A program made the translations under genes and the position numbers. The notes below the pieces were generated by a model that was not told the DNA's origin, did not search any database, and saw only the letters and a program-made list of their open reading frames with translations. Below are positions 1,532 through 16,977 of a DNA stretch of 63,319 nt, piece by piece. Source of the DNA: a virus. Lineage: Duplodnaviria; Caudoviricetes. The stretch covers positions 1-63,319 of the IMG/VR virus record IMGVR_UViG_3300044833_000023, one strand, 5' to 3'. Within the stretch, counting starts at the first letter, position 1, and each line of letters starts with the position of its first letter.

Positions 1532-1945
1532 TTAGTGAAACGAGATGCGCTCGATGAACGCTCGGATGTCGGGGGTGAAAAACTTGATGCCCTCGAAGAT
1601 GAAGGCGAACGCGGCGCCGGTGACGGTGCCCGCGACCAGAACGATCGCGGCCATCCGCCCCTTGAACTCAACGAGGTCTTTGACTTTCGGGGTCATGTCC
1701 GAGACGGCCGCCGCGATCGGGGGTATCTTCGCCATCTCGGTTTCGATGTTGGTGGCGCGAGCGGCGATGAGGTCGAGGGACTTCGCAAAGTCTCGATGCC
1801 TCTCTGACCCGACCGCGAGACGGCCCTCGATGGTTCCGATGGTGCCCTTGATGTCTCCGATCGACGTGAAGATTTGGAGCAGCAGTTGGTTGGTGGTCGC
1901 TTCTGGGAGCAGCAACGGGTTGATGATGGCGGGGGTCTCCGTCAT
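1532..1945 (-). CDS. Lysis-region membrane protein (coiled coil plus C-terminal TM helix)
   Basis: C-terminal hydrophobic stretch MAAIVLVAGTVTGAAFAFIF; translationally coupled to the o-spanin gene. Confidence 0.65.
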   Translation of the reverse strand: MTETPAIINPLLLPEATTNQLLLQIFTSIGDIKGTIGTIEGRLAVGSERHRDFAKSLDLIAARATNIETEMAKIPPIAAAVSDMTPKVKDLVEFKGRMAAIVLVAGTVTGAAFAFIFEGIKFFTPDIRAFIERISFH

Positions 1946-2223
1946 TTGCCCGCGTACTTCTTGCGGACCTTGCGGTAGATGTTCCGAGACTTGACGAGGC
2001 GCGTGTTCGCCTCATCCAGGGCGACGCCTGTCTTGTCGAGCACGATGCGAGCGTCCTCGCCGTCTTCCCACGTCGGCACCGCGACCGGATCGAGCACTAC
2101 GACCGTTTCAGGTGGCAGCGTGCGCTCAACGACGGCCGGCGGCGGGAGGCTTGCGCATCCACTTGCGATCGTCATCAGTGAGAGCACAGACGCCGTTCGG
2201 GCGAAGTTTGAGAGCCGCTTCAT
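1942..2223 (-). CDS. Putative o-spanin (Rz1-like lipoprotein)
   Basis: Lipobox IASG-C followed by a Pro-rich segment; overlaps the 3' end of the upstream membrane gene in another frame. Confidence 0.7.
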   Translation of the reverse strand: MKRLSNFARTASVLSLMTIASGCASLPPPAVVERTLPPETVVVLDPVAVPTWEDGEDARIVLDKTGVALDEANTRLVKSRNIYRKVRKKYAGK

Positions 2224-2575
2224 AGTCCGTGATCCTTTTCTGATCTGCTACCGCCTGTTGAGCCAACTCGATACGCGCTGCGTTTGCATCGTTTTCAGCA
2301 TCGATCGTCGCATTCAGGTCGACGGTCTTTGCTTCAACCTCAGACTTGAGGTTCTTCATCGCTTCCCGTTCGTCGGAGATGCGGAACCCAACGAGGAAGG
2401 CCATCAGGACGATCATCACGAGCGCCATGAAGCGGGCTTCCGGCACGTAGGGGCCGATAACCGGGAAGTATTTCAACAGTGGGAAATAGCCGACGACCAG
2501 TGCGGCAAGGAGCACGACTGCATCGACGCAGAGTGCTGGATACGAGGTTGCGATAGTCCAGAAGATGTCGGCCAT
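2126..2575 (-). CDS. Putative i-spanin (Rz-like)
   Basis: N-terminal TM segments, then a coiled coil and a C-terminal Cys; directly downstream of the endolysin with TAATG coupling. Confidence 0.65.
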   Translation of the reverse strand: MADIFWTIATSYPALCVDAVVLLAALVVGYFPLLKYFPVIGPYVPEARFMALVMIVLMAFLVGFRISDEREAMKNLKSEVEAKTVDLNATIDAENDANAARIELAQQAVADQKRITDYEAALKLRPNGVCALTDDDRKWMRKPPAAGRR

Positions 2576-3054
2576 TACAAGCCCTCCATGCACAGGTTCC
2601 GTTCTTTTGAACGTCGAATTTCGAGACCGCGCACGACGACGCCGCCCGCCTTGTTCCAGGCGAGCATCGCGTTACACGCCTCGACGTATTCATATCGGTT
2701 CAGATGGCGCGCGGTGCCGGAGTGGCAGAAGCCATGCGTGCCGATGTTGTAGGAAAACGAGATGAACGACGCCTCGGTCTTGGCGCTGATCGGCACGAAG
2801 ATGCACGCCTCGATTTCCTCGGCGTAGCGCGGCAGCTTCTTCGCCAGCATGTCGGCGCATTCTTGCGGCGTGTAGTGGTCGCCGATCTTGACGCCTTCGG
2901 TCTCGCCAAAGCAGACCGTCGGGATGCCGTAGGCCAGCCTGTCGGGCTTGGCGGTGAGCCAGCGGCCCTCGAACTGGGAGACGCATGGCACCGCGAGCGA
3001 GCACGCGAGGACGCCGACGGTCGATAGCCTGCGAACAGCGGGATGCATGGCCAT
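2575..3054 (-). CDS. Endolysin, GH24 (T4/P21-type) lysozyme, probably SAR type
   Basis: FEG-x-D catalytic spacing, PTVCFGET, SFSYNIG and WNKAGG..GLEIRRSKER motifs; weakly hydrophobic N-terminus. Confidence 0.9.
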   Translation of the reverse strand: MAMHPAVRRLSTVGVLACSLAVPCVSQFEGRWLTAKPDRLAYGIPTVCFGETEGVKIGDHYTPQECADMLAKKLPRYAEEIEACIFVPISAKTEASFISFSYNIGTHGFCHSGTARHLNRYEYVEACNAMLAWNKAGGVVVRGLEIRRSKERNLCMEGL

Positions 3055-3341
3055 TATGCGTCCTTCTGCTGTGCGAAGAAGCGGGCAGCGCAGGCGGCCA
3101 CGGTCACGAGGCCGGAGAGCGCGGCGAAAATGCCGGGCGGGATCGGCGGCTTGACCTGCCAGGCGATGGCGACTTGGATCGCCACTTCGAGGCCGGAGAG
3201 GATCGCGGCCAGCACGATGAAGCGCACCGACCAAGATTTGGTCAGTACCCAGTGCCAGTCCTCGCGGAGCCGCGCATTGCCGCGCAAGTCCTCCCAAAGC
3301 AGAGCGAACCCCCTCTTTCCGGGGTCGTCGGTAACGGTCAT
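3054..3341 (-). CDS. Putative holin (two TM helices)
   Basis: 95 aa, W-x-W..KSWSVRF plus two hydrophobic helices ending AARFFAQ; GGAGG RBS; stop overlaps the endolysin ATG. Confidence 0.75.
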   Translation of the reverse strand: MTVTDDPGKRGFALLWEDLRGNARLREDWHWVLTKSWSVRFIVLAAILSGLEVAIQVAIAWQVKPPIPPGIFAALSGLVTVAACAARFFAQQKDA

Positions 3342-3355
3342 CGTCTTCCTCCAAT

Positions 3356-3383
3356 AAAAAAGGCCGCCCGGGATGGACGGCCT
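3356..3383 (-). terminator. Rho-independent terminator between the giant gene and the lysis cassette
   Basis: Minus strand reads AGGCCGTCC-ATCCC-GGGCGGCCT followed by a T run. Confidence 0.7.
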
Positions 3384-3405
3384 GTGAATTCGCAGGGCGA
3401 GAAAA

Positions 3406-6400
3406 TTAGTGCTCCCACGGGTGTTTCTGTTCGTATCGATGCTTCGCCCGCGCGACCGCATCAGCCTGGTCGTAGTCGATGCCGCGGAACACCTTGGCGA
3501 TCGGGATGTCGGTTGCCTTCGGTGTCTCGCCCTTCATGATCGAGCCTGCGGTATTGCCGACCTCGATGCCGAACCGCTTCTGCGCGCCGAACATCTGATC
3601 GGTAAGCTCGCGAATGTCCTCCGGGTATCGGTCGATCAGCCCGGAGTGATGCGCGTCGCCGCCGGTCCATGAATTCAGGGTCTTCGCGGCGGTCTTCCAA
3701 CCCTCTCCCGTCGGCATATAGTCGCCGCGAGGCTTGCGGCCGGACTCGGAATTCGGCCCCTTCTGGAACATGTCATTGTGGACGGGGTTGCCGAGCCAGT
3801 TCTTGTTCTCGATGACGTGCGCCAGAGGCCGGAGCAGTTCCGGCGTAATCATGTCCATCAGGTTGCCGAACTCGCCGAGCGGCGTGAACGCCATCAGCGT
3901 CGACTTCACCATTTCGGCCGCGTGCTCGCCGACCGTGATCTTGCTCTTGATGGCGCCGATCTTGTCGAGGAACATCCCCGTCAGGTGGTAGCCGAACGTC
4001 ATCGGGAGCGCGTAATTGTAGGCGTTGGGCAGCGCGTACTTCTGCGGGCGTCCCTGCGCGTCGCGCTCGAACGGGTTGAGGAAGATGAAGCCGAGAGCGC
4101 GCTCGAAGTCCGGAACCTTCTCGAAGTATGGATCGCCGTTGTCGTCGCTGCCGCCGAGCAGGTAGTTGTTCAGCGCCAGCGCCACGCCAGCGGCAAACAC
4201 ACCGGCGAACACCCGCCGCATCCGCCCGGATTGCGTCAGCGCGCTTGTCAGCCGCGTGCCGGTCCTAACCGCTGTGTTGTAGAACGGGAAGATCGTTCCC
4301 GCGACACTGGAGACAATCGCCCGCTTTTGATAGTTCACCGTCGCGTTGCGGGCGCGGTAGGCCGCGGCTTGCGGCGTCATGCCCTGATCGCGCGCCTGGG
4401 CGTAGGTCGCGAGCCGGGTCGCGTTGTCCCAGACGTTGAAGATTTCGTCGGTCTTGTCGGCGATGCCCTTGAGTACTCGAAGTGGGTTGAGCCGCGTGCT
4501 GGTGGTGATCTGCTTGAGATCGTCCACAAGCTCGTTCTTGATGGTGTCAATGTCCCGCATCGAGCGGAACGCCATGTTGCCGCCCTGCGCCTTCATCTCG
4601 GCCCAGTATTTGCCAAGCTGGCCCGACGGCCGCCCCTTCTCAAAGTTGGAGATCGCGCGCGAGGCCCGGCCGAACGCAGGGAACGCATCGGCCGTCCACT
4701 TCCATGGGCTATAGGCGCCGGTGTCGCGAAGCTGGTAGGCGTTGAGCGCGCCTTCAACCATGTAGCGGCCGAAGAAATGCCGAGCCGCGAAGTCAGGACT
4801 GTAGTGCGTCCACATGCTCTTGAGCTTGTTGACGCCGAGCAACACCTTGTTCAATCCTGGGAACGACCATGGCGAGTTGCGGTTGATCGACTGCGCCAGC
4901 TTCTCACTCTTGAACAGCATCGTCCGTGGAGCGCCGTTCCGCTTGAAGTTGACGGCGCCCTTGGCCATCGCGCTCGGGCTGGTATCGACCCAGCGAGCGA
5001 GGCCGGTTTTCGGATCGATCGTCTTCTTCGGAGTGCCCTTATTGAGGCTCACGAAGTCGTCGGTATTGATGCCGCCGTGCTTCAGCGTCGCAAGCGTTTC
5101 GGCGATCGAATTGTAGTGCATGTTGCGCTCGCCGCGCTCGATGGTGCGGTATGCCTGATCTATCAGGTGCACCATCGGATTGTCGGCCTTTGACATTCGA
5201 CCGAAGGCGCGCTTGGTCTCCGGGGCCCGGATGCCGATCGGGGAGCCCTTGCCGCCGAAATACTTCTCGTCGTCGATGTCGGCTTCCTCGAAGCCCTTGA
5301 AGGGCACGTAGTCGGGCCCGTTGGCCTTCCATGCGTCGATGGTGGCTTGGCTTTCGAGCCCGTAGTGGACCATCATCTGCCGGTTGAAATCGACGATGTT
5401 GCGGGTCTGCCGCCAGATGTCTTTGTAGGCTTGGCCCTGCGGCCCGCTCTCGAAGGCCCTGATCTTGTCGCGCGCCTCGTTGTTCGAGAAGCCAGAGCCG
5501 CCAGCGATGTTGTTGTCGCGCATCGCGTCATTGAACGGATGGCCGGGCTGATACAGCGGGCCGATGTTGCGGTTGCGCTCCAGCGCGCCCTTTGCCATCA
5601 GGTAGTCGCCCAGATCGGGCAGCGTGATCTCGGCCTTGTTCGCGGTCTCGATCAGCGGCTTGAGCAACCGGTTACGGAAATCGTTCGCCTGGTACGCGAC
5701 CTTGCCCGGGATCAGTTCCTTCTTGACATAGAACTGCATCGCGTCGGGCAGCTTCGACGCCTCGGGGAAGACCTTTTTGGCTTCCTCCGGGGTCAATCCC
5801 AGATACCGCGCCTCGACTTCCTTTTGCAGGAGTTTCTCGCGGTGGCTCAAATCGGAGAACGCTTCGACGAAATCGGCCTTCTTGCTGTCGTTGAACAGGT
5901 TGCCGATCGCCTCGCTGACGCGGCCGTTGGCCTTGGTGCGCTTCTCGAAGATCGACGCCAGCGGCTCGTCATCATGGATCGCCGCTTCCGGCCGCGGAGT
6001 GTCGCCCTTGGCCTTGGCGTATTTGCCGCGGTACGCCTTGTCGAAGATGTCCTCGTAGGTCTCAAAGCCGAGCCCGCGAAGGCCGTTGGCCAGGCGCTTG
6101 ATGGCTTCCCAGAGCCGGTGATACCAGCGGCGCACGCCGACATGCAGACCCTCGCCCTTGGAGCGGTCGGTCGCATAGTCCTCGAAACCGATGGCGCGGA
6201 CTTCCTCGGGATCGAGGCCGTCAGCCTGCTCTTTGCTGTAGCCCCGGGTCTTTCGGATGTAGTCGCGGATGCGGCCGGTCTCGCGCTCCATCAGCGCCCG
6301 CTCCTGCGGGCTCTGCAACTGGTACTCGATCGCGTGATACGCTTCGTGGAACGCGGCGCTGTCGACGCCGTGCAGCAACGCCAGCTTGATGAGATGCCGG

Positions 6401-9400
6401 CTCGGGTAATAGAGACCGCGCGCGCCGGGCGACCTGTCGGCCATGGCGCCCCAGCCGCCAGCGGTGCCTGCCAGCGACATCAGGTCGGGGCTGAATTCGG
6501 CCTTGACGTGATCGCCAACCAGATGTTGCAGGACATCGCGAATGAGGCCCTCGATCTCCGGCTGTTTTTCGGTAGCGGCTTCCGTGATGCTCGCCAGCGG
6601 TTCCTCGACCTTGGTCGGCTTCGGCGCCTCGGCCTTGAGCGTGAACACGGCGCCGAGTTCTTGCAGGCGCTTGATGGCTCCAAGGATATTGCCGTCGGTG
6701 ACGTCCGTAACCATGCGCCCGCTGCGCGAGATGAAGTCGCCAGCGGCCAGATCGATCAGCGGCTTGTCGAGGAAGAAGACGCCGCCCGTCTTTTTCGCCT
6801 TGTCGGTCGCGATGACGTATTCTTTGCTCCATCGCCCCTCCCTGCGGATCGAAACCGTTTGGCCTTTTGACCAGATCGTCTCGGTCGGGTTCCTGTCGAG
6901 CCAATCCCTGATCTCGAACGGGTCGTGGACAACGCGGCCCTTGTCGACCGCGTGCTTCTCAAGATCGAAGTCCCTCGACGTCAGGATGCCCTGCCGGACA
7001 CCGCCCTTGTCGTCGGTGTAGTTGATGATGTTGCCCTTGCGCCCGAGCCAGTCATAGGCCGCCAAGAGATTGCCGGTCGCGATGTAGCGTTCCTCGCGGG
7101 CGTCCGACTGCATGTGCTTGTAGCGGTCGAGCGTCTGCTCGGCGCTTTCGATCCAGCGTTGCAGCGGGACCACTTCCACGTCGAGCGCGCTTTCGCTGTC
7201 GGCCTTGCCGTCGGCATGAATGCGCGAGAACGGCAGCGTCATGTGTCGGCTGGCGTCCGCGATAGCGAATTCGGCCTTCCACGACGAGAGCGCCAGCGGG
7301 TTCTTGGTGACGCCCTTCTGCTCGACCTTGGTGATGATGCCGGTCAGGTTGCCGTCGGCCGTCTTCAGCGTGACGCGCTGACCGATACGGACCAGCTTGT
7401 GAACGGCGCTCCAACGGTCCTTGATGGCGTCAAACTTGCTCTTTTCCTTCGCCTGTTTCTCGGCGTCCGGCATCCCTTCGAGGATCGGCTTGATGTACTC
7501 GGCGAACTCCTTGATCGCGCGCTGGCGCTCGGCGATCTCGTTCGCGGCCGATGCTTTCCCGAGACCCTGATAGGTATCGCTCGCCTGGTCGAGCAGCCGG
7601 GCCAAGTCCTTGATCTCGGCTTTTTCGTCGGGCGCCGCCTGTGCGGTGCGGTCGCCGATCGCCTCGATGACCTTCCCCATGACCTCGGCCGGCGTGTACG
7701 GCTTGCCCAGGCGCGCGACGGAGACCTTCTCGACGTTGACCGGCGCGGCGAAGCGCGAATTGCTGTCGTTCTTCCTGCCCATAACCTCGGTGGTCTCCAA
7801 CGACTTCGCCTTGAGGTCGAAGGTCTTGGCTTCCATCGGGTTCGTGCCAGCAGCCGACAACTGCTTCATCATGTCTTCGTAGGCGCTCTCAAGCTCCTGA
7901 TAGAGGGCTTCCTGTTCGTGCAACGGTAGCAGCGGGATGCGGCCGGTCAGCTTCCGCATCGCGTCGGGGATGATGGCCCGGCCGCTCTCGGTGAACTTGA
8001 TCGGCATCGCCAGCCGCGGGTTCATCTCGAAGTTTTCCGAGAGGTAGTTGGCCGCTACGATGTCGCCGTATTCGTTGATGAAGTCGGGCACGTCCTTGGC
8101 GGTGACGGCGCTGGTCCGCGACGCCGTGGTGTTGGCATTGAGCGAGGCCATCTTCTTCGCGAGCACCGCGGCCGGGCGCTTCTCGGCCGGGATGTCGGCC
8201 ACGAATTGGGTGTAGCGGGGCAACACGACCTGTCCGGTGCGGTTGATGCGGCCGAGCAACTGCATGTGGGTGTCGACGTTGCCTTCCGGCTGCACGATCA
8301 TCATGTGCCGGACCGACTGATCGTTGAAGTCACGGCTGGCGTGCGCGGACAGGCCGGTCGATCCGGATTGGTTGATGATGAGCGCGTGATGGCCGCCGTT
8401 CACCGGCTTGGTATTGAACTTGCGCAGGGTCTCGTTTTTGCCTGCGGTCGTCAGGTCTTTGCCGGGGCGCTTGCGAAGTACCGGGTCGCCCTTGCCGGAA
8501 TAATCGAGGATCAGGCCGCGTCCGGTGATCTCGCCGACGCTGTAGCCTTCCTTTTTCAGCCGCCAGATCAGATGGTCGATCGGAGAGACCGGCATCTCGG
8601 ACAGGTTCATCGAGCCGATGATCTCTTTGGCGCGCTCGTAGGACGCGACGCCCGCAGGGCCGAGTTCCTCGTCGGTCAGGCGCCGACGTTCGGCCTTCTC
8701 GCCCTTCTTCATGAAGGGCTTTTTGATGGTTATCATCCGCGTGCGCTCAAGGTACTTGTGCAGCACGTCGGAGAAGTCCGCGGGCATCTCGTCACCGACC
8801 TTGACGCCGATCGTGTCCGCGTAGTCCTTGAGGAAGCTCTCCATCGTGTTCGCGACGGTCAGGACCGGCTTCTCGCCGCGCTTGATCGCCTCGATCGCCG
8901 CTTGCGCGGCCGGCTCAACCTTCATCGCCAGCAGCATCTGGTTGATGACGTTGTGCATGATCGACGTGAAGTTGGTGGACTGTGCGCCAGAGTCGCCGGT
9001 CGCCCCGTCGTAGCCGGTGGTGCCGCCCTCGCCCATCAGGTCGGCGTTGACGTTCTCCATGGCCGCTTTGACGGCGGCGCTGAAGTCCTGAATGGCCGAT
9101 AGGCCGCTGGAAATCGTATTGTAGTTCTCGCGGTCCACGCCGACGAGCGGCGTGTTGTACTCGATGCCGGCGAACGATCGCTCGCGGCGGATGTACTGCC
9201 CGTCCTCGGCGAGCATGGTCGCGACAGCCTGTTGCATCGGTACGCCGCCGCGCGCGATAGCCTCGCCCAAGTCCTTCGGGTCCGCGACCGCCATCTTCAT
9301 GTTGGTGGCGGAGTAGAGGTCCATCACGTCCGGGCGCTTGGCGTAGGTCGCCGACGAATAGAACACGCCGTTGGCGTTCTGGATCAGTTCGCGCGCGAAG

Positions 9401-12400
9401 CCGGAGCGGTTGGCCGGCTCGTTGGCCGCCTTCTTCCGCCCAACCTCGGTGCCGCCCGCGTTGTGGCTCTCGTCCATGATGACGACGGAGTGTGGCGCGA
9501 TGGCTTTGAGGAAGGCGCGGCGGCCGGTGTCCTCGCCCTTGACCGTCTGCATCTGCGAATAGTTGGTGAACACCATATCGAAGTGCTTCTGGAAGGCTTC
9601 CTTGCCGGAAACGCTGCCGAGCACGCGATCATGCTCTTTCAGTTGCCCGTTCTTCAGCGTGGCGCCGCCCTCTTCGAGCGGCATGTCGAGATCGGCGTTG
9701 GTGGCGAGGATGCGCGGCGGCTCGTCGGTCATGCCGATCGCCTTCATGTCGCGGTAGATGTCGGCGTAGAGGTTGGGGCTCATCGTCACAAAGACCGGGA
9801 TGCGGTCGTTCTTGATCGCCCACTTGATGATCGCGGCATTGACGCGGCCCTTGCCGATGCCGGTCTGGTCTCCAATGATGAAGCCGTTGCCGTTCTTGAT
9901 GTTGTCGATCGCGAGGCCCAGCGCGTCGATCTGCTCGGCACCGAAGTATTTCGGAAGATCGGCCTTCTTGTAGTCGAGTTCCTTGGCGACAAAATCATCG
10001 ATCGGCCCGACACGGCGCTCAAGATCGTCGAGCGAGGCGTCTTGCGGACGCTTGAGGTTGGCGGGGACGAGCGTGTCGAGGTTCTCGATCTTGCTCTTGG
10101 GGGTGTTGCGGACCTGACCCTCGGTCTCGGTCGCGGTGCCGGCCTTCGCGCGCTCCCGATCTGGGCTCTCGTCCTTGGTCTGCTCTTTCTCTCCGAGCTT
10201 GATCTCGCCTGACGTCAAGTCTTGGATGAACCGCTTGAGGTACTGCGCCATGTCCTGCATGGCTTCCTTGCCGAACTTCAGCGTGTCGCGCATGTGCTCG
10301 ACCATGCGGCGGATCAGTTCGCCGATGTCGCCCCAGAAGCTGCGGTAGTGCTCGGCCGCCGTCTTGAAGAACGGCTTGGCCTTGGCGTAGGTGTCCTCGT
10401 CGAAGGCGGGGCCGGCGCCGTGGGTCTTGCCGCCGCCGAACAGTTGATAGAGGCCGGAGAAGGCGGCATCGGTCGCGGCCGACATGTTCTCGCCGGCGGA
10501 TTTGACGTTCTCTTTGGTGGTGCGCGGGCCGCCCGATGTGCGCGGGCCAGCAGCCGGCTTGCTAACGGGCTCGGCGTAGGCGTCCTTGATCGCGCCGCTG
10601 ATGAGTGCGTCGAGGTCTAATCCAGATGATGATCCGATGGCAGGAGCAGCACTATCAGATCGATCGGCCGGGTTATGTTCTCCGGCTCCAAGTGCATCTT
10701 GATCGCCGCCTCCGCCAGCACCGGCATTCCCGGCTCCTGAAACAGGCTGTTGCACCACGCCCGCGGGGTTTTCCCCTCCGGCTGCGGCTCGATCCCCACC
10801 CTGTCCAGCATCTCCAGTATCTCCGATGCCTGATCCCGCCAATCCGGGTCGCTCGACATCATCACTGACATGCTGTCCGCCAGCCGTTCCAGCATCGCTT
10901 CGGTTCGGTTGTCCATCGAGCAGCCCTCCCAGGCCGGTCCAATCGTTGAAGATGCGCGGTACATCGACCGCTGGCAAGGCCCGGGAGGACTTCCCGCGGC
11001 CGTTTATGACGATCACATCAACCGGCCAGCCGGCGCCCTGACGCTCATAGAGGTCGCCTGAGACCGTGAAATGATCGGTGACGTCGTACTTGTCGTACAG
11101 CGTCTTGAAGAATTCGCGCTTGGCCTTGCCGTTGTAGGCATCCGACCGGGCTTCCCGGGTCGTCGCCATCCTGTTGACGCCGCCGAGGATCAGCACGGCC
11201 TTGCCGTTGTCCTTCATGGCGGCCAGGGCGCGCAGCGCGATGGCGTGATCGATCTCGTGGGTCTGATAGTTGGGCTGTATGTCGCCCATGTCGAACACCT
11301 TGGAGACCACGCCGTACTGCGTTGACTCCCGCACCGCGCCGAACGGCGGGTTGGCGATTACGACGTCGTAGGTCGGATTTTGGTGGCGCTCCAATGCGTC
11401 TTTGTTGCTGACGTTGAAGCCCTGCTCTTTCAGGTTGCCTGCGCGATCCGGGTTGATCTCGTTGGCGATCGTGAGCTTGGGGTCGGCGCCGATCAGGAGC
11501 GCGCCGTTGCCGGCGGTCGGCTCATAGACCGTTGTGTCCTTCGTGATGCCCGCGAGTTCGGAGGCGATATAGCCCAGCGGTACCGGCGTCGAATATGCCT
11601 GGTCGCGAACCGACGTCGACGTGCGCGTGCCGAGACGGGGCTGGCGGCCGTACAGGCCCACCAGCGCGTCGTAGATTTCCTTCGGCGTCCCGCCAGCGTC
11701 CACGATCCCGCGCGCGACCTTGACGATGCCGAATTCGATGGCTTCCTCGGTGGCCTTCGGGTCTCCGGGGAAACCCGCGTCGTGGGCAAACTTGCGCGCC
11801 GCGAGGATGTTCGTGAAGTCGAGGCCGTCGGTGAAGTGCTTGGCGAAGGCGTCGGAGAGCGACTGCTTGCTTGCCTCATCGACCGCGATCATCTCGTGGA
11901 TCGGCATCGGCTGCGGTCGCGGAACCTCAACGCGCGTGCGGGTGACGATCGGCTCCGGCTCGCCTTCGACGGCTTGAACGCGCGTGTTGATGCCGTGCTT
12001 GCCCTCGCCCGTGGTCAGGGCCTTGAGGACGCGCTCGAAGTCCGCGTTGATGGTCTTGCGTTCCTCGCCGACCGGGTACGGGTTGCCCTTGAAGCCTGCC
12101 GCGTAGCGCGTCGGCTCGACGCCCTGCACGAGGTACTGTGACGTGAAGCCTTCCTCTTGGATTTTGTCGAAGACGAAGGCTTCGCCCGCGCGTGCGAGCA
12201 ACTCAAGCGGCCGGCGCCAGTAGTCGCCCTTGCCGGAGAGCTTAGTCGCCTCCTTCAGGTAGTCCGTCGGAACCACCTTGCGCGCGATCGTGTCCGCCTT
12301 CTCGGCGTTCGTGATGTAGTGATCCCGGATGCCGATATTTTCCTCGGCCTTCTTCAGGCCCATGGACGACCCGCCCTTGCGCATCCGGTCCTTGATCCGG

Positions 12401-15400
12401 TTGGCGTGGTCGATCCAGGCTTGCCGCTGGCCCTTGTCATGTTCGAGCTTCTTGGCGTGGTCGGCGATGGCCTGTTCGTCATCCTGCTCTTTGTTGAACA
12501 GGTCGTGCATCAGCTTGTTGACGCCGACGCGGAGGCGCGGCTTCAGATGCGTGTTGGTTTCGTTGAACGCCGAGGCGTCGCTCATGGAGCCCAAGAAGCG
12601 CCCGCGCCACGCCTTCGCGGTGTTCTTCGGCGTGACGCGGCCGTTTGAAATCCATTTCGCGCCGCCCCCATAGGGGTTCGACGTTGCGAATTCGCCGAGG
12701 TAATGGTCGAGCGCGTGTATCCACTCGTGCGCCAGCGAGCCCGCGCCGTTGATCTTCGTCATGTTGATGACGGTGCGGTCAGCCTCGTAGTGCGCGGCGC
12801 CCGCGCCCTTGCCGCCCTTGCCGCGGGAGCCGAAGCCGATGGCGAGCGTGCCGTCGAGCGACATCGCCTTGGCGGGAAGATTGAGGATACGCGCGAGGTC
12901 GTGCAGCGCGTCAAAGGCGAGGTTGAGCACCTTCTGGCGTTCGTCGTTTGCCGCCCAGTTGCCGAACTCGACGCCACGGAAGCCGAAGGTGTCCTTGAAA
13001 TCGTCGGAGCCGACGTCGCGATCCTTGCGATAGTCCGGGCCGTCGCGGTTGATGGCGTCGAGATGCGGGCGGTTCGGCTCCTGTTCCTCAGAGCCGCCTT
13101 TGCTGATCTTGGCGTAGGCTTCCTTGGCTGCGGCTTCCGCGAGTTCGCGGGTGCCGAACTCTCCGACCTTTCCGCCGTTCTTGCGGCGAACGATCCACAC
13201 CTTCTCTTTGACCGCTTTCTTTTCGTAGTCGTATGGAGTGTAGGGATCGATCTCGAACAGCCGCTGCCACGGCTCCATGTTCGGGAAGCCTTTGGCGACG
13301 GCGCCTTCGGCGGTGCGAACGTCGGCGCCCATCACCGTGAGGGGATTGTTGCGGCTACCGCGCTGCCTAATCGCGGCGAGGACCGAATAACTGTTGGTGC
13401 CGAGCGCGGCGGAGACGGCCTGACTGACCTTCTTCATCTCATCGACGGTCTTCACCTTGGCGAATTCGTCGCGGATGGCTTTCAGGGCATCGAAGTAGTT
13501 GTCGCGATCTTCTTTGCTGACCGTATCGTTGTAGCGGTTGGTCGGCTTGACGGCGATGCGGTCGTAGACGCGCTTCATCAGCGCAGCCGCCACGGGCGCG
13601 ACGCCGCTATCGACGACGGCCGCATAATCCGGGCGCGGCCAGATGTTGTGCTTGGTGACGTTGGTATCAAGCTCGCCGCCGGTCATGCCGTCGAGTGCGG
13701 CCTTGGTCAGGCCGCCGGTCCATTGGTCCTTGCGCGCGCCGCCGATCTTCTCGCCAACGTCCTCGATCTTCTGCTTTTCCGGCTCGGGGACGGGCTCATC
13801 GACGGACGGCTTTTTTTCTTCTTCGGCCTTCTGGCGCCGCTTCGTCTCGCGGTCATGCAGTTGTAGCGCAGCGGTCAGAACGTCAACTTCCTGATCGCTC
13901 TCGGTTTTGCCGCGTTCCAAGATGTCCCGAGCCGAAGTAGCCATGGGGCTTGTGCGGTGCCATTTGTGCTCTTTGTCTTTGAGCGCAAATGTGAGGGCGG
14001 CTTTCTCGTTCGGCGTGAGGTTCGGGTCGCCTTCCTCTACAACGGTGTCGTTGGCATCTTCGGCGGCAGGCTGGTGTTCAGTGGCGTCGCCGGTTTTGTC
14101 CCCAGCGGTTTTGTTCCCGCGGGCGGCTGGCTTAGCGGTGCCGCCGCCTGCGGTTGAGCCATCGCCGGGCTTGCCTGTTTCGCCTTGTGCGCCATTTTCG
14201 CCGCCGCTCGCAGCGACCGGAGTTTCTGTTGCACTACCGGCGCCGACTTGCCCAGATGCGGGGCGTTCTTGCTCAGAAGGTGTGCCGCTGCCAGATGCCC
14301 CTTGGCTTCCGGGCTGTAGTAGTGTGTTGACTTCTTCGCCATAGGCTTGTTCCGCCTGCTGATGAGTGAGGAATTTCTGGCCGACGAGGTTCTCGATGAC
14401 GGCGTGGCCGAACGCAACGTGGGGCAGCATCCCCTCGTTCTCTGCGAGGATTTCCGCCGCGCGCGCGGTGTCTACCGGCAGAACGTGGTGATAGTCCTCG
14501 CCGAGCGCCGCCTCGATCTGGGCGTGATGCTCTTTCGTCGGCTCCGCGGTGACGGGCGCGGGCGGCATTACCTCGGCGCGGCCGATGGCGCCGATCGGCT
14601 GCGAGTGGTCGCCGTTGCGGAGCCAATCCTTGAATTCGTCCGGCGCCAGCGCCTTCATACCGCCGATGCGATCAGCGCCGCCGTCGGTGTACGAGTTCGC
14701 GTAGGCGTGAAGTGCCTCGATCGGGTTGCGGAACCCGGTCATGATCTTGTGTTCGTCGAATTCGCCCTTACCGCCAGCGTGGTGCTGGTCGATGACGAAG
14801 ACGTGCTGGCTGTCCGGATGCGCGCCGATGAAGACGTCGAGCGGTTCGCCGTCGGCGCCCGTCGTACCCTTGATGCGGCCGTACGCAACCGGCATCTTGA
14901 CTTCCCACGGCGTACCGTCTTGCTCGGTGCCCTTGCGGGTGTCGCCGACGCCGGTCTCCAGGCTGATCGAGTTCTTGCCGGTCAGCCCGAGATGCTCGAT
15001 CTCGGCGTGACCGTGCTTGAAGTTCGTTGCCGCGGCCTGCGGGTCGGTCGGGTCTTTCGCGACGACTTCGCTCGCCTTGAGCACATCGTCCGCAGAGCGG
15101 ATGTTGATGGGATTGTCGCGGGTGCCTGTGCCGGTCGTTTCGGCCGTGGGCTGCGGTACCGGCTTTTCGGCCGTATTTTGCTGGGCTTCTTGCTCTGGCG
15201 GTCGCTCGCTCGCCGATCCGCGCGCCATCGCCTCTTGAAACCGGCGCCGTCGCTCGGCCGGGGTCATGACCGCGATGTGAGCGTCTGTCCAGCCGGCGCG
15301 CTTCAGGCCCTCGCGCTCGGTCCGCTCGGTCGCGCTCTCGCCTTGCGGATTGAGCGGTTCTTCCTTGTTGTTGACGGGCGCTTCGCCTTGGCTGGTGTGC

Positions 15401-16977
15401 TTGTTGACCGCTGCGACCAATTCCTCGTGCGACATCGCGGCGATGTCTTCGTCCGAATGACCGAAATAGCGCAGGATGCGCTCCAGCTTCGTGCGAACGT
15501 CGGTCTGCTCGTTGGTCTTCTGGCGTTCGCGCTTCTGGCGTTGCTGGCCTTGACCAGTGTTGCCGTTGCCGGCGCCGCCGCCGGGATTGCTGCCGCCAGT
15601 ATCGGAGCCAGTCCCCGTTGACCCCGCGCCAGTGTCCGGATTGATGTCGTCGTGCGGGGGCGGGGGCGGCGGGAGGTCCGGCGGAGTGTCCGGGGTGATG
15701 TCCGGCGGAGTGTCCGGCGTGGGCGGAACGTCGCCCGGCTTCTTTCGGCCTTCCATGTAGGCATGGCCCGCGCCGAGCAATACGCCAGTGATGAGCGACG
15801 CGATGACGCGCTTGATGTCGGGGCTGTATTCGGCCTTGGGGTCGTAATACTTCTGCGCTATCTGGTCGCCGAGATACTCTTGCGCCTCTACGACGGCCGC
15901 CATGGTGCCGGCGAATGCCGCGGTCTTCCGGAACGCGGCCGAGGCAACGTACTTGTTGAGGGTTTCTGCCGCCCAGCCGCTCAATGCAGGGGCGAATTTC
16001 TTGACGGGTGTGAGTATGACGCCAAGAGGGACAGCGCCGAGCGCGCCACTAACGAGCGCCGACATACCGGCTGCCTTAGCCGCGTCTTCATCGCTTGCGT
16101 TCTTGGCTTTCGCCGCCTCAAAGGTGTCGCCTGCGGATTGCGCGGCCATGGTGGCGGCGCCGAGGGTGATACCAAGTGCGGGATTGATTGCGCCGACGGC
16201 CACGGGCGCCACCATGCCGCCAACCGCAGGGCCAAGATACTTACCGCCGAAGCTCTCCTTTTCAGCCGGCGACATCGGGATCGTGTCTTCGGCTGATTTC
16301 TTGATCGCAGCGCCGCCCTTATAAAGCGGGCGCTCCGTTACCGGAACAGACGGCTGGGCGTTGAAGGTGCCAAACTTCTGGCGGAGACCTTCCATTTCGG
16401 CCTGTGCGTCTGCACCGCCAGAGATGCGCTGCAAGGCCGCGTTGTAGTCCATCTGCAATCCGCGATCGGTGATCGTGGTCAGCGCCTGCTTCATCAGTTT
16501 GGCTTTGCCGCCCGCATCCAGCGTGCCAGCCGTCCCAAGTTGATCGATCAGCGCGGATGCTTCCGGCTTCTCGGGGGTGTTGTCCTTGATCGCGCCAGCT
16601 TGCAGGATCGCGCCGCCGCTCTTGATGAAGCCCTGCGCGGCGCCCTTGCCTGCTGCAACGGTCTGGTCGATCGGACCGAGTGTCGGGACCGGCGCTTCCG
16701 GCGGCTTCACTACCTCGCCGAACGATGACGGTTTCGGGCCAGTGACGACGGGCTCGCCGTAGGATGACGGGGGTTTTTCCGCTACGGGCTCGACGGGCTT
16801 CTCGTCGATGTGCCGCGTCTTGCGGTCCATCCGGCGCATGAGCGTGTCGGACAAGCGGCCGGGATCGGCAACTCCGCTATCGGAGATGTCGCCTGGGAAG
16901 GTCTGTCGTGCGAGATCGTCTACGCCCTGACCGGGATCATAAGGCGCGTCTGCCCCGAAGGCATCGGCGAGAGCCAT
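3406..16977 (-). CDS. Giant 4523-aa polyvalent virion/ejection protein (DarB-like): PPase-like, LPD5/LPD1-like, N6-adenine MTase, strawberry-notch-like SF2 helicase, HExxH metallopeptidase, LPD38-like C-terminus
   Basis: YGRIKGTTGADGEPLDVFIG..DEHK (~14.7-15.0 kb); KIEDVGEKIGGARKD (~13.77 kb); FGFRGVEFGNW..GSLAHEWIHALD..YWRRPLELLARAGE (~12.0-13.0 kb); EPTAGNG and NPPF (~11.3-11.6 kb); GDQTGIGKG, DESH, SAT, QLLGRINRTGQ (~8.2-9.9 kb); HEAYH (~6.34 kb). Confidence 0.9.
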   Translation of the reverse strand: MALADAFGADAPYDPGQGVDDLARQTFPGDISDSGVADPGRLSDTLMRRMDRKTRHIDEKPVEPVAEKPPSSYGEPVVTGPKPSSFGEVVKPPEAPVPTLGPIDQTVAAGKGAAQGFIKSGGAILQAGAIKDNTPEKPEASALIDQLGTAGTLDAGGKAKLMKQALTTITDRGLQMDYNAALQRISGGADAQAEMEGLRQKFGTFNAQPSVPVTERPLYKGGAAIKKSAEDTIPMSPAEKESFGGKYLGPAVGGMVAPVAVGAINPALGITLGAATMAAQSAGDTFEAAKAKNASDEDAAKAAGMSALVSGALGAVPLGVILTPVKKFAPALSGWAAETLNKYVASAAFRKTAAFAGTMAAVVEAQEYLGDQIAQKYYDPKAEYSPDIKRVIASLITGVLLGAGHAYMEGRKKPGDVPPTPDTPPDITPDTPPDLPPPPPPHDDINPDTGAGSTGTGSDTGGSNPGGGAGNGNTGQGQQRQKRERQKTNEQTDVRTKLERILRYFGHSDEDIAAMSHEELVAAVNKHTSQGEAPVNNKEEPLNPQGESATERTEREGLKRAGWTDAHIAVMTPAERRRRFQEAMARGSASERPPEQEAQQNTAEKPVPQPTAETTGTGTRDNPINIRSADDVLKASEVVAKDPTDPQAAATNFKHGHAEIEHLGLTGKNSISLETGVGDTRKGTEQDGTPWEVKMPVAYGRIKGTTGADGEPLDVFIGAHPDSQHVFVIDQHHAGGKGEFDEHKIMTGFRNPIEALHAYANSYTDGGADRIGGMKALAPDEFKDWLRNGDHSQPIGAIGRAEVMPPAPVTAEPTKEHHAQIEAALGEDYHHVLPVDTARAAEILAENEGMLPHVAFGHAVIENLVGQKFLTHQQAEQAYGEEVNTLLQPGSQGASGSGTPSEQERPASGQVGAGSATETPVAASGGENGAQGETGKPGDGSTAGGGTAKPAARGNKTAGDKTGDATEHQPAAEDANDTVVEEGDPNLTPNEKAALTFALKDKEHKWHRTSPMATSARDILERGKTESDQEVDVLTAALQLHDRETKRRQKAEEEKKPSVDEPVPEPEKQKIEDVGEKIGGARKDQWTGGLTKAALDGMTGGELDTNVTKHNIWPRPDYAAVVDSGVAPVAAALMKRVYDRIAVKPTNRYNDTVSKEDRDNYFDALKAIRDEFAKVKTVDEMKKVSQAVSAALGTNSYSVLAAIRQRGSRNNPLTVMGADVRTAEGAVAKGFPNMEPWQRLFEIDPYTPYDYEKKAVKEKVWIVRRKNGGKVGEFGTRELAEAAAKEAYAKISKGGSEEQEPNRPHLDAINRDGPDYRKDRDVGSDDFKDTFGFRGVEFGNWAANDERQKVLNLAFDALHDLARILNLPAKAMSLDGTLAIGFGSRGKGGKGAGAAHYEADRTVINMTKINGAGSLAHEWIHALDHYLGEFATSNPYGGGAKWISNGRVTPKNTAKAWRGRFLGSMSDASAFNETNTHLKPRLRVGVNKLMHDLFNKEQDDEQAIADHAKKLEHDKGQRQAWIDHANRIKDRMRKGGSSMGLKKAEENIGIRDHYITNAEKADTIARKVVPTDYLKEATKLSGKGDYWRRPLELLARAGEAFVFDKIQEEGFTSQYLVQGVEPTRYAAGFKGNPYPVGEERKTINADFERVLKALTTGEGKHGINTRVQAVEGEPEPIVTRTRVEVPRPQPMPIHEMIAVDEASKQSLSDAFAKHFTDGLDFTNILAARKFAHDAGFPGDPKATEEAIEFGIVKVARGIVDAGGTPKEIYDALVGLYGRQPRLGTRTSTSVRDQAYSTPVPLGYIASELAGITKDTTVYEPTAGNGALLIGADPKLTIANEINPDRAGNLKEQGFNVSNKDALERHQNPTYDVVIANPPFGAVRESTQYGVVSKVFDMGDIQPNYQTHEIDHAIALRALAAMKDNGKAVLILGGVNRMATTREARSDAYNGKAKREFFKTLYDKYDVTDHFTVSGDLYERQGAGWPVDVIVINGRGKSSRALPAVDVPRIFNDWTGLGGLLDGQPNRSDAGTAGGQHVSDDVERPGLAGSGIGDTGDAGQGGDRAAAGGENPAGVVQQPVSGAGNAGAGGGGDQDALGAGEHNPADRSDSAAPAIGSSSGLDLDALISGAIKDAYAEPVSKPAAGPRTSGGPRTTKENVKSAGENMSAATDAAFSGLYQLFGGGKTHGAGPAFDEDTYAKAKPFFKTAAEHYRSFWGDIGELIRRMVEHMRDTLKFGKEAMQDMAQYLKRFIQDLTSGEIKLGEKEQTKDESPDRERAKAGTATETEGQVRNTPKSKIENLDTLVPANLKRPQDASLDDLERRVGPIDDFVAKELDYKKADLPKYFGAEQIDALGLAIDNIKNGNGFIIGDQTGIGKGRVNAAIIKWAIKNDRIPVFVTMSPNLYADIYRDMKAIGMTDEPPRILATNADLDMPLEEGGATLKNGQLKEHDRVLGSVSGKEAFQKHFDMVFTNYSQMQTVKGEDTGRRAFLKAIAPHSVVIMDESHNAGGTEVGRKKAANEPANRSGFARELIQNANGVFYSSATYAKRPDVMDLYSATNMKMAVADPKDLGEAIARGGVPMQQAVATMLAEDGQYIRRERSFAGIEYNTPLVGVDRENYNTISSGLSAIQDFSAAVKAAMENVNADLMGEGGTTGYDGATGDSGAQSTNFTSIMHNVINQMLLAMKVEPAAQAAIEAIKRGEKPVLTVANTMESFLKDYADTIGVKVGDEMPADFSDVLHKYLERTRMITIKKPFMKKGEKAERRRLTDEELGPAGVASYERAKEIIGSMNLSEMPVSPIDHLIWRLKKEGYSVGEITGRGLILDYSGKGDPVLRKRPGKDLTTAGKNETLRKFNTKPVNGGHHALIINQSGSTGLSAHASRDFNDQSVRHMMIVQPEGNVDTHMQLLGRINRTGQVVLPRYTQFVADIPAEKRPAAVLAKKMASLNANTTASRTSAVTAKDVPDFINEYGDIVAANYLSENFEMNPRLAMPIKFTESGRAIIPDAMRKLTGRIPLLPLHEQEALYQELESAYEDMMKQLSAAGTNPMEAKTFDLKAKSLETTEVMGRKNDSNSRFAAPVNVEKVSVARLGKPYTPAEVMGKVIEAIGDRTAQAAPDEKAEIKDLARLLDQASDTYQGLGKASAANEIAERQRAIKEFAEYIKPILEGMPDAEKQAKEKSKFDAIKDRWSAVHKLVRIGQRVTLKTADGNLTGIITKVEQKGVTKNPLALSSWKAEFAIADASRHMTLPFSRIHADGKADSESALDVEVVPLQRWIESAEQTLDRYKHMQSDAREERYIATGNLLAAYDWLGRKGNIINYTDDKGGVRQGILTSRDFDLEKHAVDKGRVVHDPFEIRDWLDRNPTETIWSKGQTVSIRREGRWSKEYVIATDKAKKTGGVFFLDKPLIDLAAGDFISRSGRMVTDVTDGNILGAIKRLQELGAVFTLKAEAPKPTKVEEPLASITEAATEKQPEIEGLIRDVLQHLVGDHVKAEFSPDLMSLAGTAGGWGAMADRSPGARGLYYPSRHLIKLALLHGVDSAAFHEAYHAIEYQLQSPQERALMERETGRIRDYIRKTRGYSKEQADGLDPEEVRAIGFEDYATDRSKGEGLHVGVRRWYHRLWEAIKRLANGLRGLGFETYEDIFDKAYRGKYAKAKGDTPRPEAAIHDDEPLASIFEKRTKANGRVSEAIGNLFNDSKKADFVEAFSDLSHREKLLQKEVEARYLGLTPEEAKKVFPEASKLPDAMQFYVKKELIPGKVAYQANDFRNRLLKPLIETANKAEITLPDLGDYLMAKGALERNRNIGPLYQPGHPFNDAMRDNNIAGGSGFSNNEARDKIRAFESGPQGQAYKDIWRQTRNIVDFNRQMMVHYGLESQATIDAWKANGPDYVPFKGFEEADIDDEKYFGGKGSPIGIRAPETKRAFGRMSKADNPMVHLIDQAYRTIERGERNMHYNSIAETLATLKHGGINTDDFVSLNKGTPKKTIDPKTGLARWVDTSPSAMAKGAVNFKRNGAPRTMLFKSEKLAQSINRNSPWSFPGLNKVLLGVNKLKSMWTHYSPDFAARHFFGRYMVEGALNAYQLRDTGAYSPWKWTADAFPAFGRASRAISNFEKGRPSGQLGKYWAEMKAQGGNMAFRSMRDIDTIKNELVDDLKQITTSTRLNPLRVLKGIADKTDEIFNVWDNATRLATYAQARDQGMTPQAAAYRARNATVNYQKRAIVSSVAGTIFPFYNTAVRTGTRLTSALTQSGRMRRVFAGVFAAGVALALNNYLLGGSDDNGDPYFEKVPDFERALGFIFLNPFERDAQGRPQKYALPNAYNYALPMTFGYHLTGMFLDKIGAIKSKITVGEHAAEMVKSTLMAFTPLGEFGNLMDMITPELLRPLAHVIENKNWLGNPVHNDMFQKGPNSESGRKPRGDYMPTGEGWKTAAKTLNSWTGGDAHHSGLIDRYPEDIRELTDQMFGAQKRFGIEVGNTAGSIMKGETPKATDIPIAKVFRGIDYDQADAVARAKHRYEQKHPWEH
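10617..10916 (-). CDS. Candidate nested gene (99 aa) in the +1 frame inside the giant gene
   Basis: GGAGG 8 nt upstream of ATG; mostly G/C-ending codons; helical, globular-looking sequence MDNRTEAMLERLADSM...; the host frame is a Gly/Ala/Asp-rich linker here. Confidence 0.6.
   Translation of the reverse strand: MDNRTEAMLERLADSMSVMMSSDPDWRDQASEILEMLDRVGIEPQPEGKTPRAWCNSLFQEPGMPVLAEAAIKMHLEPENITRPIDLIVLLLPSDHHLD
14037..14342 (-). CDS. Candidate nested gene (101 aa, basic) in the +1 frame inside the giant gene
   Basis: MAKKSTHYYSPEAKGHLAAAHLL...; AGGCGG RBS-like element upstream; matches a low-complexity linker of the host frame. Confidence 0.5.
   Translation of the reverse strand: MAKKSTHYYSPEAKGHLAAAHLLSKNAPHLGKSAPVVQQKLRSLRAAAKMAHKAKQASPAMAQPQAAAPLSQPPAGTKPLGTKPATPLNTSLPPKMPTTPL

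Follow-up and report, generated by a model that had tools for sequence, protein, structure and literature searches.

Rz1 is a small proline-rich protein encoded wholly inside a larger phage gene, read in the +1 frame and initiated independently on the same late mRNA. This outer-membrane lipoprotein carries a signal sequence and a lipobox cysteine, and the gene that hosts it encodes its own partner. Most well-known overprinted genes belong to small RNA or ssDNA viruses, in which both frames are constrained. The described systems closest to the locus reported here, each drawn from part of the cited text, are the embedded spanin genes Rz/Rz1 of phage lambda (PMC6139136, PMC5295617), overprinted viral genes and OLGenie (PMC8227390, PMC7531306), the polyvalent proteins (Iyer et al., 2017; PMC5512222) and the long embedded genes of bacteria, e.g. 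Pseudomonas aeruginosa (PMC8850804).

In the window (the whole stretch of DNA analysed, 63,319 nucleotides of a Caudoviricetes phage, IMG/VR record IMGVR_UViG_3300044833_000023) we describe nested gene 1 (14342..14037, minus strand), which, from comparison with relatives, is likely a real coding sequence that overprints a spacer of a polyvalent-protein gene in the +1 frame. The features discussed below are the following.

3406..16977, minus strand: host gene, encoding a 4523-aa phage-type polyvalent protein (Pfam, PHROGs)
14037..14342, minus strand: nested gene 1, putative +1-frame CDS, from ATG at 14342 to TAG at 14039..14037
14187..14342, minus strand: N-terminal module of nested gene 1, residues 1-52, the best conserved part, a predicted helical hairpin
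14043..14129, minus strand: C-terminal Pro/Lys/Thr-rich motif of nested gene 1, residues 72-100, kept in a subset of relatives
14340..14345, minus strand: host codons Tyr879-Gly880 (TAT GGC) containing the nested ATG, which lies at the same codons in 16/16 sequences
14343..14362, minus strand: purine-rich Shine-Dalgarno-like stretch before the nested ATG, AGGCGGAA
10617..10916, minus strand: nested gene 2, putative +1-frame CDS, 99 aa, pI 4.45 (acidic)

Like Rz1, the product of nested gene 1 is a small proline-rich protein read from the +1 frame within a larger phage gene, and production from the same mRNA is proposed. Unlike Rz1, it has no cysteine and no hydrophobic leader in its 101 residues, and it is hosted by a polyvalent protein. 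A spanin-like pair (i-spanin-like and o-spanin-like, read by eye) lies elsewhere in the phage, at 2593..2126 and 2223..1942, separate from the host gene. The host protein shares the build described for polyvalent proteins in part of the text of Iyer et al. (2017; PMC5512222), with unrelated enzymatic and LPD domains beside virion genes. Pfam places InPase, LPD1, N6_Mtase (methyltransferase), AAA_34/Helicase_C_4 (SNF2/Sno-like helicase) and LPD38 domains in it, the PHROGs matches include a DarB-like one, and its neighbours are major head, virion structural, tail fibre and endolysin genes; unrelated effector domains and LPD domains thus occur in one polypeptide beside virion genes. Genes hidden in spacers are absent from the consulted part of that description (PMC5512222), where the words 'overlapping', 'frameshift' and 'linker' do not occur and 'nested' appears twice, each time for a hairpin fold.

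An earlier note, made from the DNA letters, had proposed that a hidden gene lies in a linker between PPase-like and LPD5-like regions of the giant gene. The PPase-like region corresponds to Pfam InPase at host residues 647-786, upstream of nested gene 1; downstream, Pfam returned no LPD5 match at E <= 0.01. The host frame over nested gene 1 is of low complexity, as the note had said (Gly/Ala/Ser/Thr/Glu/Pro-rich, pI 4.3), and host residues ~880-980 appear to be only a spacer between host domains. The ORF itself was reproduced as described (ATG 14342, 101 codons, the quoted translation, +1 frame), the phase following from 16977-14342 = 2635, remainder 1, relative to the host ORF 16977..3406.

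One alternative is that the frame is open by chance, owing to 62-65% G+C and a Gly/Ala/Pro/Thr-rich host spacer, and has no product. Many longer alternative-frame ORFs exist in the giant gene, with antisense ORFs of up to 443 aa, and the +1 frame holds 5 ATG-ORFs of at least 101 aa, compared with 3.85 +/- 1.51 in 1000 synonymous-codon shuffles. A +1 ORF at least as long falls on the spacer of nested gene 1 in 28.4% of these shuffles, and its 101 codons stay stop-free in 19.7% of 2000 local shuffles. Other alternative frames, when translated, obtain tblastn matches as well, which are shadows of host conservation. The openness of the nested gene 1 frame alone is not above chance, and we rejected it as evidence for a gene since shuffles reproduce the open frame. 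It is the conservation of the frame in relatives that goes beyond chance, and on this conservation only we build the case for nested gene 1. The earlier note had named, as findings that would speak against the gene, open frames equally frequent in shuffled linkers and homologues lacking conservation; the former was observed, but the homologues do show conservation.

The relatives comprise 19 loci fetched with the nested protein, 15 of them distinct after removal of 4 duplicates, from soil or metagenome phages. Each of the 19 loci has a homologue of 90-106 aa inside a long ORF, in the +1 frame and with its ATG at the same place. Over nested residues 1-52 amino-acid identity is 0.68 in the nested frame vs about 0.42 in the host frame, among relatives that are themselves phylogenetically related, and the C-terminal motif gives 0.70 vs 0.46 in the 9 sequences that carry it. 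The mean pairwise nucleotide difference over the first 52 nested codons is 0.250/0.235/0.451 at positions 1/2/3, the third nested position being the first position of the host codon. In the host alignment, third positions are the most variable upstream of nested gene 1 (0.52-0.57 at residues 815-871) and the least variable at residues 892-930 (0.27, then 0.18), a pattern that disappears past the nested stop. The N-terminal module has 0 nested-frame stops in 16/16 sequences, most replacements in the nested protein are conservative, and one variable stretch of the alignment contains the indels. Among other searches, blastn against phages and plasmids returned short, distant matches only and a search of genome contigs for relatives returned none; the runs found to contain the stretch are DNA runs of soil metagenomes only, with no RNA run listed, and contigs of four soil DNA runs show that relatives exist.

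We assessed selection with an OLGenie-like count over 8 disjoint pairs, with 405 sites per codon position. Using uncorrected differences at high divergence, the nested frame gave a dNN/dNS of 0.45 (Fisher p 4e-13) and the host frame over the same stretch a dNN/dSN of 1.08 (p 0.72); when repeated on the host-frame alignment, the values were 0.44 (p 4.5e-13) and 1.05 (p 0.78), respectively. Differences over nested positions 1/2/3 amounted to 85/71/158 (chi-square p 9e-10). As a control, a mock +1 frame was assigned to two ordinary host domains, which displayed the reverse, the mock frame giving 1.04-1.06 and the host frame 0.34-0.47. These results show purifying selection acting on the frame of nested gene 1. 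The host frame across the same ~100 codons, which has no stops over the overlap in 16/16 sequences, is kept open and otherwise free to change, as a flexible acidic spacer, and the overlap costs next to nothing.

A scan of the whole gene for places where host third positions turn least variable and an alternative frame is the better conserved (300 windows of 30 codons, 176 evaluable) flagged only host residues 886-960, at nested gene 1, and 2026-2070, at nested gene 2, a result repeated with five other reference sequences. Five further 'p3 lowest' windows, obtained with other references, had margins <= 0.03; in each of them both alternative frames contain stops, and we treated them as noise. 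The position of nested gene 1 at one of only two places flagged, the ratios of 0.44-0.45 against about 1.05, and the preservation of ATG, frame and length in 15 relatives all argue against a chance frame without a product, which we regard as very improbable. The proposal of a real nested gene lying exactly in the spacer between host domains is, judging by both frame conservation and the signature of purifying selection, supported.

Overprinted viral genes as portrayed in the OLGenie literature (PMC8227390, PMC7531306, in part) share with nested gene 1 the character of a narrow-range, basic, partly disordered orphan in an alternative frame, as well as purifying selection that emerges once host-nonsynonymous sites are split by their nested-frame effect. 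Unlike well-known overprinting, the present case concerns a tailed phage of ~63 kb, and the host frame is free of any amino-acid constraint in the overlap (dNN/dSN about 1.05). The long embedded genes of bacteria, from the part of PMC8850804 available, likewise have support from purifying selection; they are antisense, belong to cellular genomes and come with ribosome profiling, whereas nested gene 1 is same-strand and phage-borne. The comparative evidence for nested gene 1 is much stronger than that for the bacterial genes.

Conservation could also stem from a nucleic-acid element (RNA structure, regulatory or packaging site) or from the antisense ORF 13922..14344 on the plus strand, which at 140 aa spans almost the same bases as nested gene 1. 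In a six-frame comparison the antisense frame is the second most conserved (0.58), but an ordinary host domain likewise has its mirror antisense frame in second place, indicating a shadow effect. Only the host and nested frames are stop-free in 16/16 sequences; the +2 frame accumulates 32 stops, and over the N-terminal module the antisense frame is interrupted by 8 stops among 16 sequences. Variation recurs every three bases in phase with the nested frame, peaking at the nested third base, which from the coordinates is the second codon position of the antisense ORF. This phase, together with the conservative nature of most nested replacements and the restriction of indels to one stretch, leaves an element or antisense gene as a highly unlikely source of the pattern.

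The nested ATG is formed within host codons whose use is itself biased: host Tyr879 is TAT in 16/16 sequences, while other Tyr codons of the aligned host segments are TAT in 72/150 (48%). The AGGCGG pointed out in the earlier note is present at 14357..14352, 15 to 10 nt upstream of the ATG, and most relatives carry GGAG or GGAGG before it. Using what we take to be the anti-Shine-Dalgarno sequence, we calculated a duplex energy of -5.8 kcal/mol for the window and a mean of -6.8 for the 15 relatives, the means being -4.05 for 17 presumed gene starts of the phage and -3.5 for 56 out-of-frame ATGs in the giant gene, 19.6% of which equal or better the value of the window. It is no more than suggestive that the stretch is at least as strong as those of presumed ordinary gene starts.

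Programmed ribosomal frameshifting, which is known in phage structural operons, would offer another way of reading the nested frame, yielding a truncated giant protein (~878 residues with the InPase domain) with an alternative basic tail instead of a separate small protein. In 12/15 relatives the nested frame stays open for 16-226 codons ahead of the ATG, as it does for at least 25 codons in the window, but in three relatives (L021, L015 and L019) nested-frame stops lie only 3 to 8 codons upstream. Moreover, the nine host codons before the ATG contain no conserved slippery run, and nested-frame conservation starts at the ATG and not upstream. A frameshift product would not need the ATG, which is invariant in 16/16 sequences and depends on the rarer-than-expected TAT. 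Frameshifting is, on this evidence, improbable, and independent initiation of nested gene 1 is preferred.

The computed product of nested gene 1 has 101 aa, a mass of 10.5 kDa and a pI of 10.75. Helices are predicted at residues 13-26, 28-32 and 35-56, forming a hairpin of approximately residues 13-56 that AlphaFold2 modelled from a 23-sequence alignment with a pLDDT of 75-85, the whole product reaching an overall pLDDT of only 70 and a pTM of 0.40. A variable Pro-rich stretch separates the hairpin from the Pro/Lys/Thr-rich tail; the C-terminal half is of low complexity, and its motif is predicted to be disordered (pLDDT 54-68). A homodimer prediction for residues 1-60, run without controls, scored 0.00. 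Pfam matched 0/23 members of the family at E < 0.25, PHROGs gave 0 matches, the best match among PDB sequences had an E of only 0.47, Foldseek against the PDB returned none at E <= 0.001 and the ESM Atlas no usable one. The product is an orphan, with no family, fold or partner assignable from these resources. A profile search of 1.84 billion representatives gave 7 matches at E <= 0.001, a tiny family, six of 67-131 aa and a weak seventh in a 1217-aa protein; none of the homologues seen is free-standing, outside a giant ORF. Because gene callers do not allow one gene within another, nested genes 1 and 2 are called only where a short contig truncates the giant ORF.

Nested gene 2 is located in a Gly/Ala-rich spacer after the methyltransferase domain of the giant gene. 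GGGAGGG lies at 10924..10930, 8-14 nt upstream of its start, and the ATG and GGAGG are kept in 7/7 loci. AlphaFold2 gave a pLDDT of 91.5 and a pTM of 0.83, 35 homologues have been called, and the selection test yielded a dNN/dNS of 0.82 (p about 0.1, saturated). A search for further loci with the single protein found no more, and one with the alignment found only the own contig of L018. As modelled, the two nested genes of this phage group are one basic and partly disordered, the other acidic and well folded.

The earlier note's idea that linkers carrying small nested genes are a repeated design is partly supported by these two apparent examples in the giant gene. The second conserved example is the one at 10916..10617; the note's own 'hidden gene 1' (15764..15303, 153 aa) is not conserved, with no tblastn match in the 15 related loci at E <= 1e-3. 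There the host codons vary most at the third position (0.57-0.71), and the +1 frame has a lower identity (0.18-0.25) than the host frame (0.33-0.49). Because of this lack of conservation, the note's ranking of nested gene 1 as weaker than 'hidden gene 1' was the wrong way round. Other alternative-frame ORFs in the 3' half had no match or an identity below that of the host frame (59% vs 80%). ORF 7217..6981 was also discarded, with 57% identity vs 58% for the host in a single comparison; the evaluable windows 3286-3330 within it (host residues about 3254-3332) were not flagged in the scan.

Nested gene 1 sits in what would be the late structural module, between tail-fibre/virion genes and the lysis cassette, and a promoter scan of 13800..14800 found 0 sites. 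Given this position and the absence of a promoter-like site nearby, its product would most likely be translated from the same long late mRNA as the giant gene, with ribosomes starting independently at the invariant AUG formed by host Tyr-Gly (UAU GGN), behind the Shine-Dalgarno-like stretch. Charge, predicted shape and gene position weakly suggest a small protein that would bind, or serve as an adaptor for, nucleic acid or an acidic partner, perhaps working with the injected polyvalent protein or packaged beside it, a role we put forward only tentatively. A cationic outer-membrane 'disruptin' role, as in part of the text of 10.1101/515445, was not retained, given the spanin-like pair of this phage.

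Nested gene 1 is unusually clean for a tailed phage, with a long overlap, selection reversed between frames and a host frame that is measurably unconstrained, and it provides a concrete, testable model in which disordered spacers let genes arise by overprinting. Since the host frame would tolerate any flexible spacer sequence, new +1 proteins could arise at almost no cost. The simple scan used here, which looks for host third positions turning least variable, is applicable to all giant phage and plasmid genes, and DarB-like genes of phages and conjugative elements may widely harbour the same spacer design without its being annotated. Nested products may be dedicated partners of neighbouring domains, e.g. 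packaging chaperones, regulators or inhibitors. We consider it possible, though rather doubtful, that polyvalent-gene spacers are a general nursery or shelter for overprinted genes, the giant gene being in effect an operon folded into one ORF. If this were true, nested proteins would be made in step with the injected protein, and if they work with that anti-defence protein, they would be missing parts of its system.

The 63,319-base virus record has a G+C content of 60-65%, and the giant gene hosting the nested frames is located in its late module, between structural and lysis genes.

Features of the giant gene, its nested genes and its surroundings
Upstream of the giant gene, same strand: major head, virion structural and tail-fibre genes
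16977..3406, minus strand: giant gene, the largest of the window, 4523 residues
Host residues 647-786: InPase (Pfam)
Host residues 1583-1656: LPD1 (Pfam)
Host residues about 1850-1931: DNA methyltransferase core (Pfam)
Host residues 2364-3046: SNF2/Strawberry-notch-like helicase (Pfam)
Host residues 4284-4493: LPD38 (Pfam)
14342 (ATG) to 14039..14037 (TAG), minus strand: nested gene 1, 101 codons, +1 frame
10916 (conserved ATG) to 10617, minus strand: nested gene 2, +1 frame, acidic product of 99 residues, pI 4.45
3461..3054, minus strand: holin-like ORF, identified by eye
3354..2575, minus strand: endolysin following the giant gene, PHROG match
2593..2126, minus strand: i-spanin-like ORF, identified by eye
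2223..1942, minus strand: o-spanin-like lipoprotein with lipobox, overlapping the i-spanin end, identified by eye

Given this set of Pfam domains and the DarB-like family among the PHROGs matches of the 4523-residue protein, the giant gene product belongs to the phage-type polyvalent proteins, as Iyer et al. (2017; PMC5512222) define the class. By eye, the N-terminal part (host residues about 230-400) contains several long Gly/Ala-rich segments that are hydrophobic and resemble membrane segments, as would be fitting for an internal virion protein that is ejected. The lysis cassette follows the giant gene immediately (1942..3461, minus strand), and its spanin-like pair implies a Gram-negative host.

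Nested gene 1 was found exactly as the earlier note described it, with its ATG at 14342, 101 residues in the +1 frame (14037-14342) and an AGGCGG motif, here placed 10-15 nt upstream. The overlapped host residues (about 879-980) are rich in Gly/Ala/Ser/Thr/Glu/Pro, with a pI of 4.3. The giant gene contains five +1-frame ORFs of at least 101 aa starting with ATG, compared with 3.85 ± 1.51 +1 ORFs of at least that length in whole-gene synonymous-codon shuffles (n = 1000), and its antisense ORFs reach 443 aa. The same note held that equally frequent open frames in shuffled linkers would count against the gene, and on this point the openness of the frame lends no support: a +1 ORF of such length arose on this spacer in 28.4% of 1000 shuffles, and the 101 codons stayed open in 19.7% of 2000 local shuffles. 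In itself, the open frame is not remarkable.

Using the flanking host protein as query we located related viral contigs, three of which gave +1-frame matches to the nested translation, and in one of these three the host frame is no longer alignable. Alignment searches with the nested protein found 11 viral and 8 metagenome loci, and none in the prokaryote genomes searched; after removal of four duplicates, 15 distinct relatives were retained. Each of the 19 loci carries the homologue in the +1 frame of a long ORF; its ATG is at the same place throughout, and its length is 90-106 aa. Seven more copies had already been called as proteins of 94-109 aa on contigs (1.0-1.9 kb, one without recorded size) that cut off the giant ORF. 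Two identical copies of one locus (L026 and L027) are found 62,956 nt apart on a single metagenome contig of 475,698 nt, which probably represents a phage genome of ~63 kb assembled as a concatemer. At another related locus, L024 (2653-2656), the host ORF around the nested gene starts only 143 codons upstream, which means that the giant gene is divided in another way in this relative; the nested gene remains linked to the short, conserved domain of the host frame that comes before it.

Pairwise nucleotide differences across nested codons 1-52 average 0.250, 0.235 and 0.451 at nested positions 1, 2 and 3, the most variable base being the nested third, equivalent to the host first position, and the least variable the host third. 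Amino-acid identity over these codons is 0.68 in the nested frame versus 0.42-0.43 in the host frame. As far as residue about 871, the host-protein alignment shows the ordinary pattern (0.52-0.57 at the host third position, 0.24-0.32 at the others); this is inverted at residues 892-930, where the host third position falls to 0.27 and then 0.18, and beyond the nested stop conservation is wholly lost. Across all 16 sequences (the window and its relatives), stop codons are lacking only from the host and nested frames; 32 occur in the +2 frame and 8 in the best antisense frame. The nested ATG is formed by host Tyr-Gly codons, and Tyr879 is encoded by TAT in 16 of 16 sequences, compared with 72 of 150 for the remaining Tyr codons of these aligned segments.

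We then applied an OLGenie-like test (method: PMC7531306) to eight disjoint pairs, selected on how far apart they are in the upstream host domain. At 405 sites each, nested positions 1, 2 and 3 showed 85, 71 and 158 differences (chi-square p 9e-10), with a nested dNN/dNS of 0.45 (Fisher p 4e-13) and a host dNN/dSN of 1.08 (p 0.72). Since this alignment was built on the nested frame, the test was repeated on a host-frame alignment, giving 0.44 (p 4.5e-13) and 1.05 (p 0.78), respectively. Two ordinary host domains with a mock +1 frame, used as control, displayed the reverse (mock 1.04-1.06, host 0.34-0.47). Thus, there is no amino-acid constraint on the host frame in the overlap, and across the 16 sequences it never acquires a stop. 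Judged from these substitution patterns, the host frame is kept open as a spacer, the information being carried by the nested frame.

A frameshift from the host frame, as an alternative source of the nested product, is less likely, given the invariant nested ATG, the nested-frame stops found 3-8 codons before it in three of the relatives, and the lack of any conserved slippery run upstream. A promoter scan found no promoter-like site near nested gene 1, so we infer that ribosomes would start internally on the long late mRNA, at the nested ATG, to make its product. Anti-SD pairing of the stretch upstream of this ATG (-5.8 kcal/mol in the window, mean -6.8 in the relatives; means of -4.05 for 17 presumed gene starts of the phage and -3.5 for 56 out-of-frame ATGs) fits internal initiation but is not decisive. 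The runs containing the sequence are of soil DNA only.

The whole giant gene was scanned in an alignment of 16 giant ORFs, with three complete relatives among the sequences used, in 300 windows of 30 codons, of which the 176 with at least four sequences were evaluable; the other 124 lie mostly in the 3' half. Windows were flagged when the host third position was lowest and/or the +1 frame was more conserved than the host, without stops. Only residues 886-960 (nested gene 1) and 2026-2070 were flagged, and five other reference sequences flagged the same two places, together with five marginal windows having stops in both alternative frames. A 78-aa +1 ORF at 6981..7217 (minus strand) shows 57% identity to one full-length relative, about equal to the 58% of the host frame in this single comparison; the evaluable windows within it (3286-3330) gave no flag.

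Nested gene 2 is located in the Gly/Ala-rich spacer that follows the methyltransferase domain, and its ATG and a GGAGG 7-9 nt upstream are conserved in seven of seven loci. Homologues called as proteins number 35, and they end in an invariant or conserved C-terminal motif, LLPSDHHLD. AlphaFold2, from only seven sequences, predicts a five-helix fold (pLDDT 91.5, pTM 0.83), with no known family or fold and no Foldseek match. The selection test is saturated here (dNN/dNS 0.82, p about 0.1; host 1.24), and the gene is absent from two complete relatives. "Hidden gene 1" (15764..15303, minus strand; 153 aa, Arg/Thr/Pro-rich), the other nested candidate proposed previously, has no match in the 15 related loci and its region shows ordinary host-frame variation, which suggests a chance ORF. 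The earlier proposal that linkers of this protein carry small nested genes therefore loses that example and gains the conserved ORF at 10916..10617. Thus, two spacers of one giant gene each hold a conserved +1-frame gene, both starting where a host domain ends.

Embedded genes are already known in phages, Rz1 being an example. A text search of the literature pairing polyvalent proteins with overlapping genes gave a single paper, on an unrelated subject, and nested genes of this kind go unmentioned in the available text of the founding paper (PMC5512222).

The product of nested gene 1 (10.5 kDa, pI 10.75) has 14 Lys+Arg versus 1 Asp+Glu, 15 Pro and no Cys. In its alignment, a conserved N-terminal module (about 52 residues) is followed by a stretch whose length and sequence vary and, in most members, by a conserved C-terminal part rich in Pro/Lys/Thr. 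AlphaFold2 (23 sequences; overall pLDDT 70) predicts helices at 13-26, 28-32 and 35-56 (pLDDT 75-85) and a disordered tail. Nothing known matches it in Pfam, PHROGs, PDB sequences, Foldseek or the ESM Atlas, and a profile search of 1.84 billion representatives matched only seven proteins. This orphan family is restricted to this phage group, which is what an origin of the gene by overprinting would lead one to expect. Its charge, shape and late structural context lead us to guess that it may be a small binding or adaptor protein, acting with, or packaged beside, the injected giant protein.
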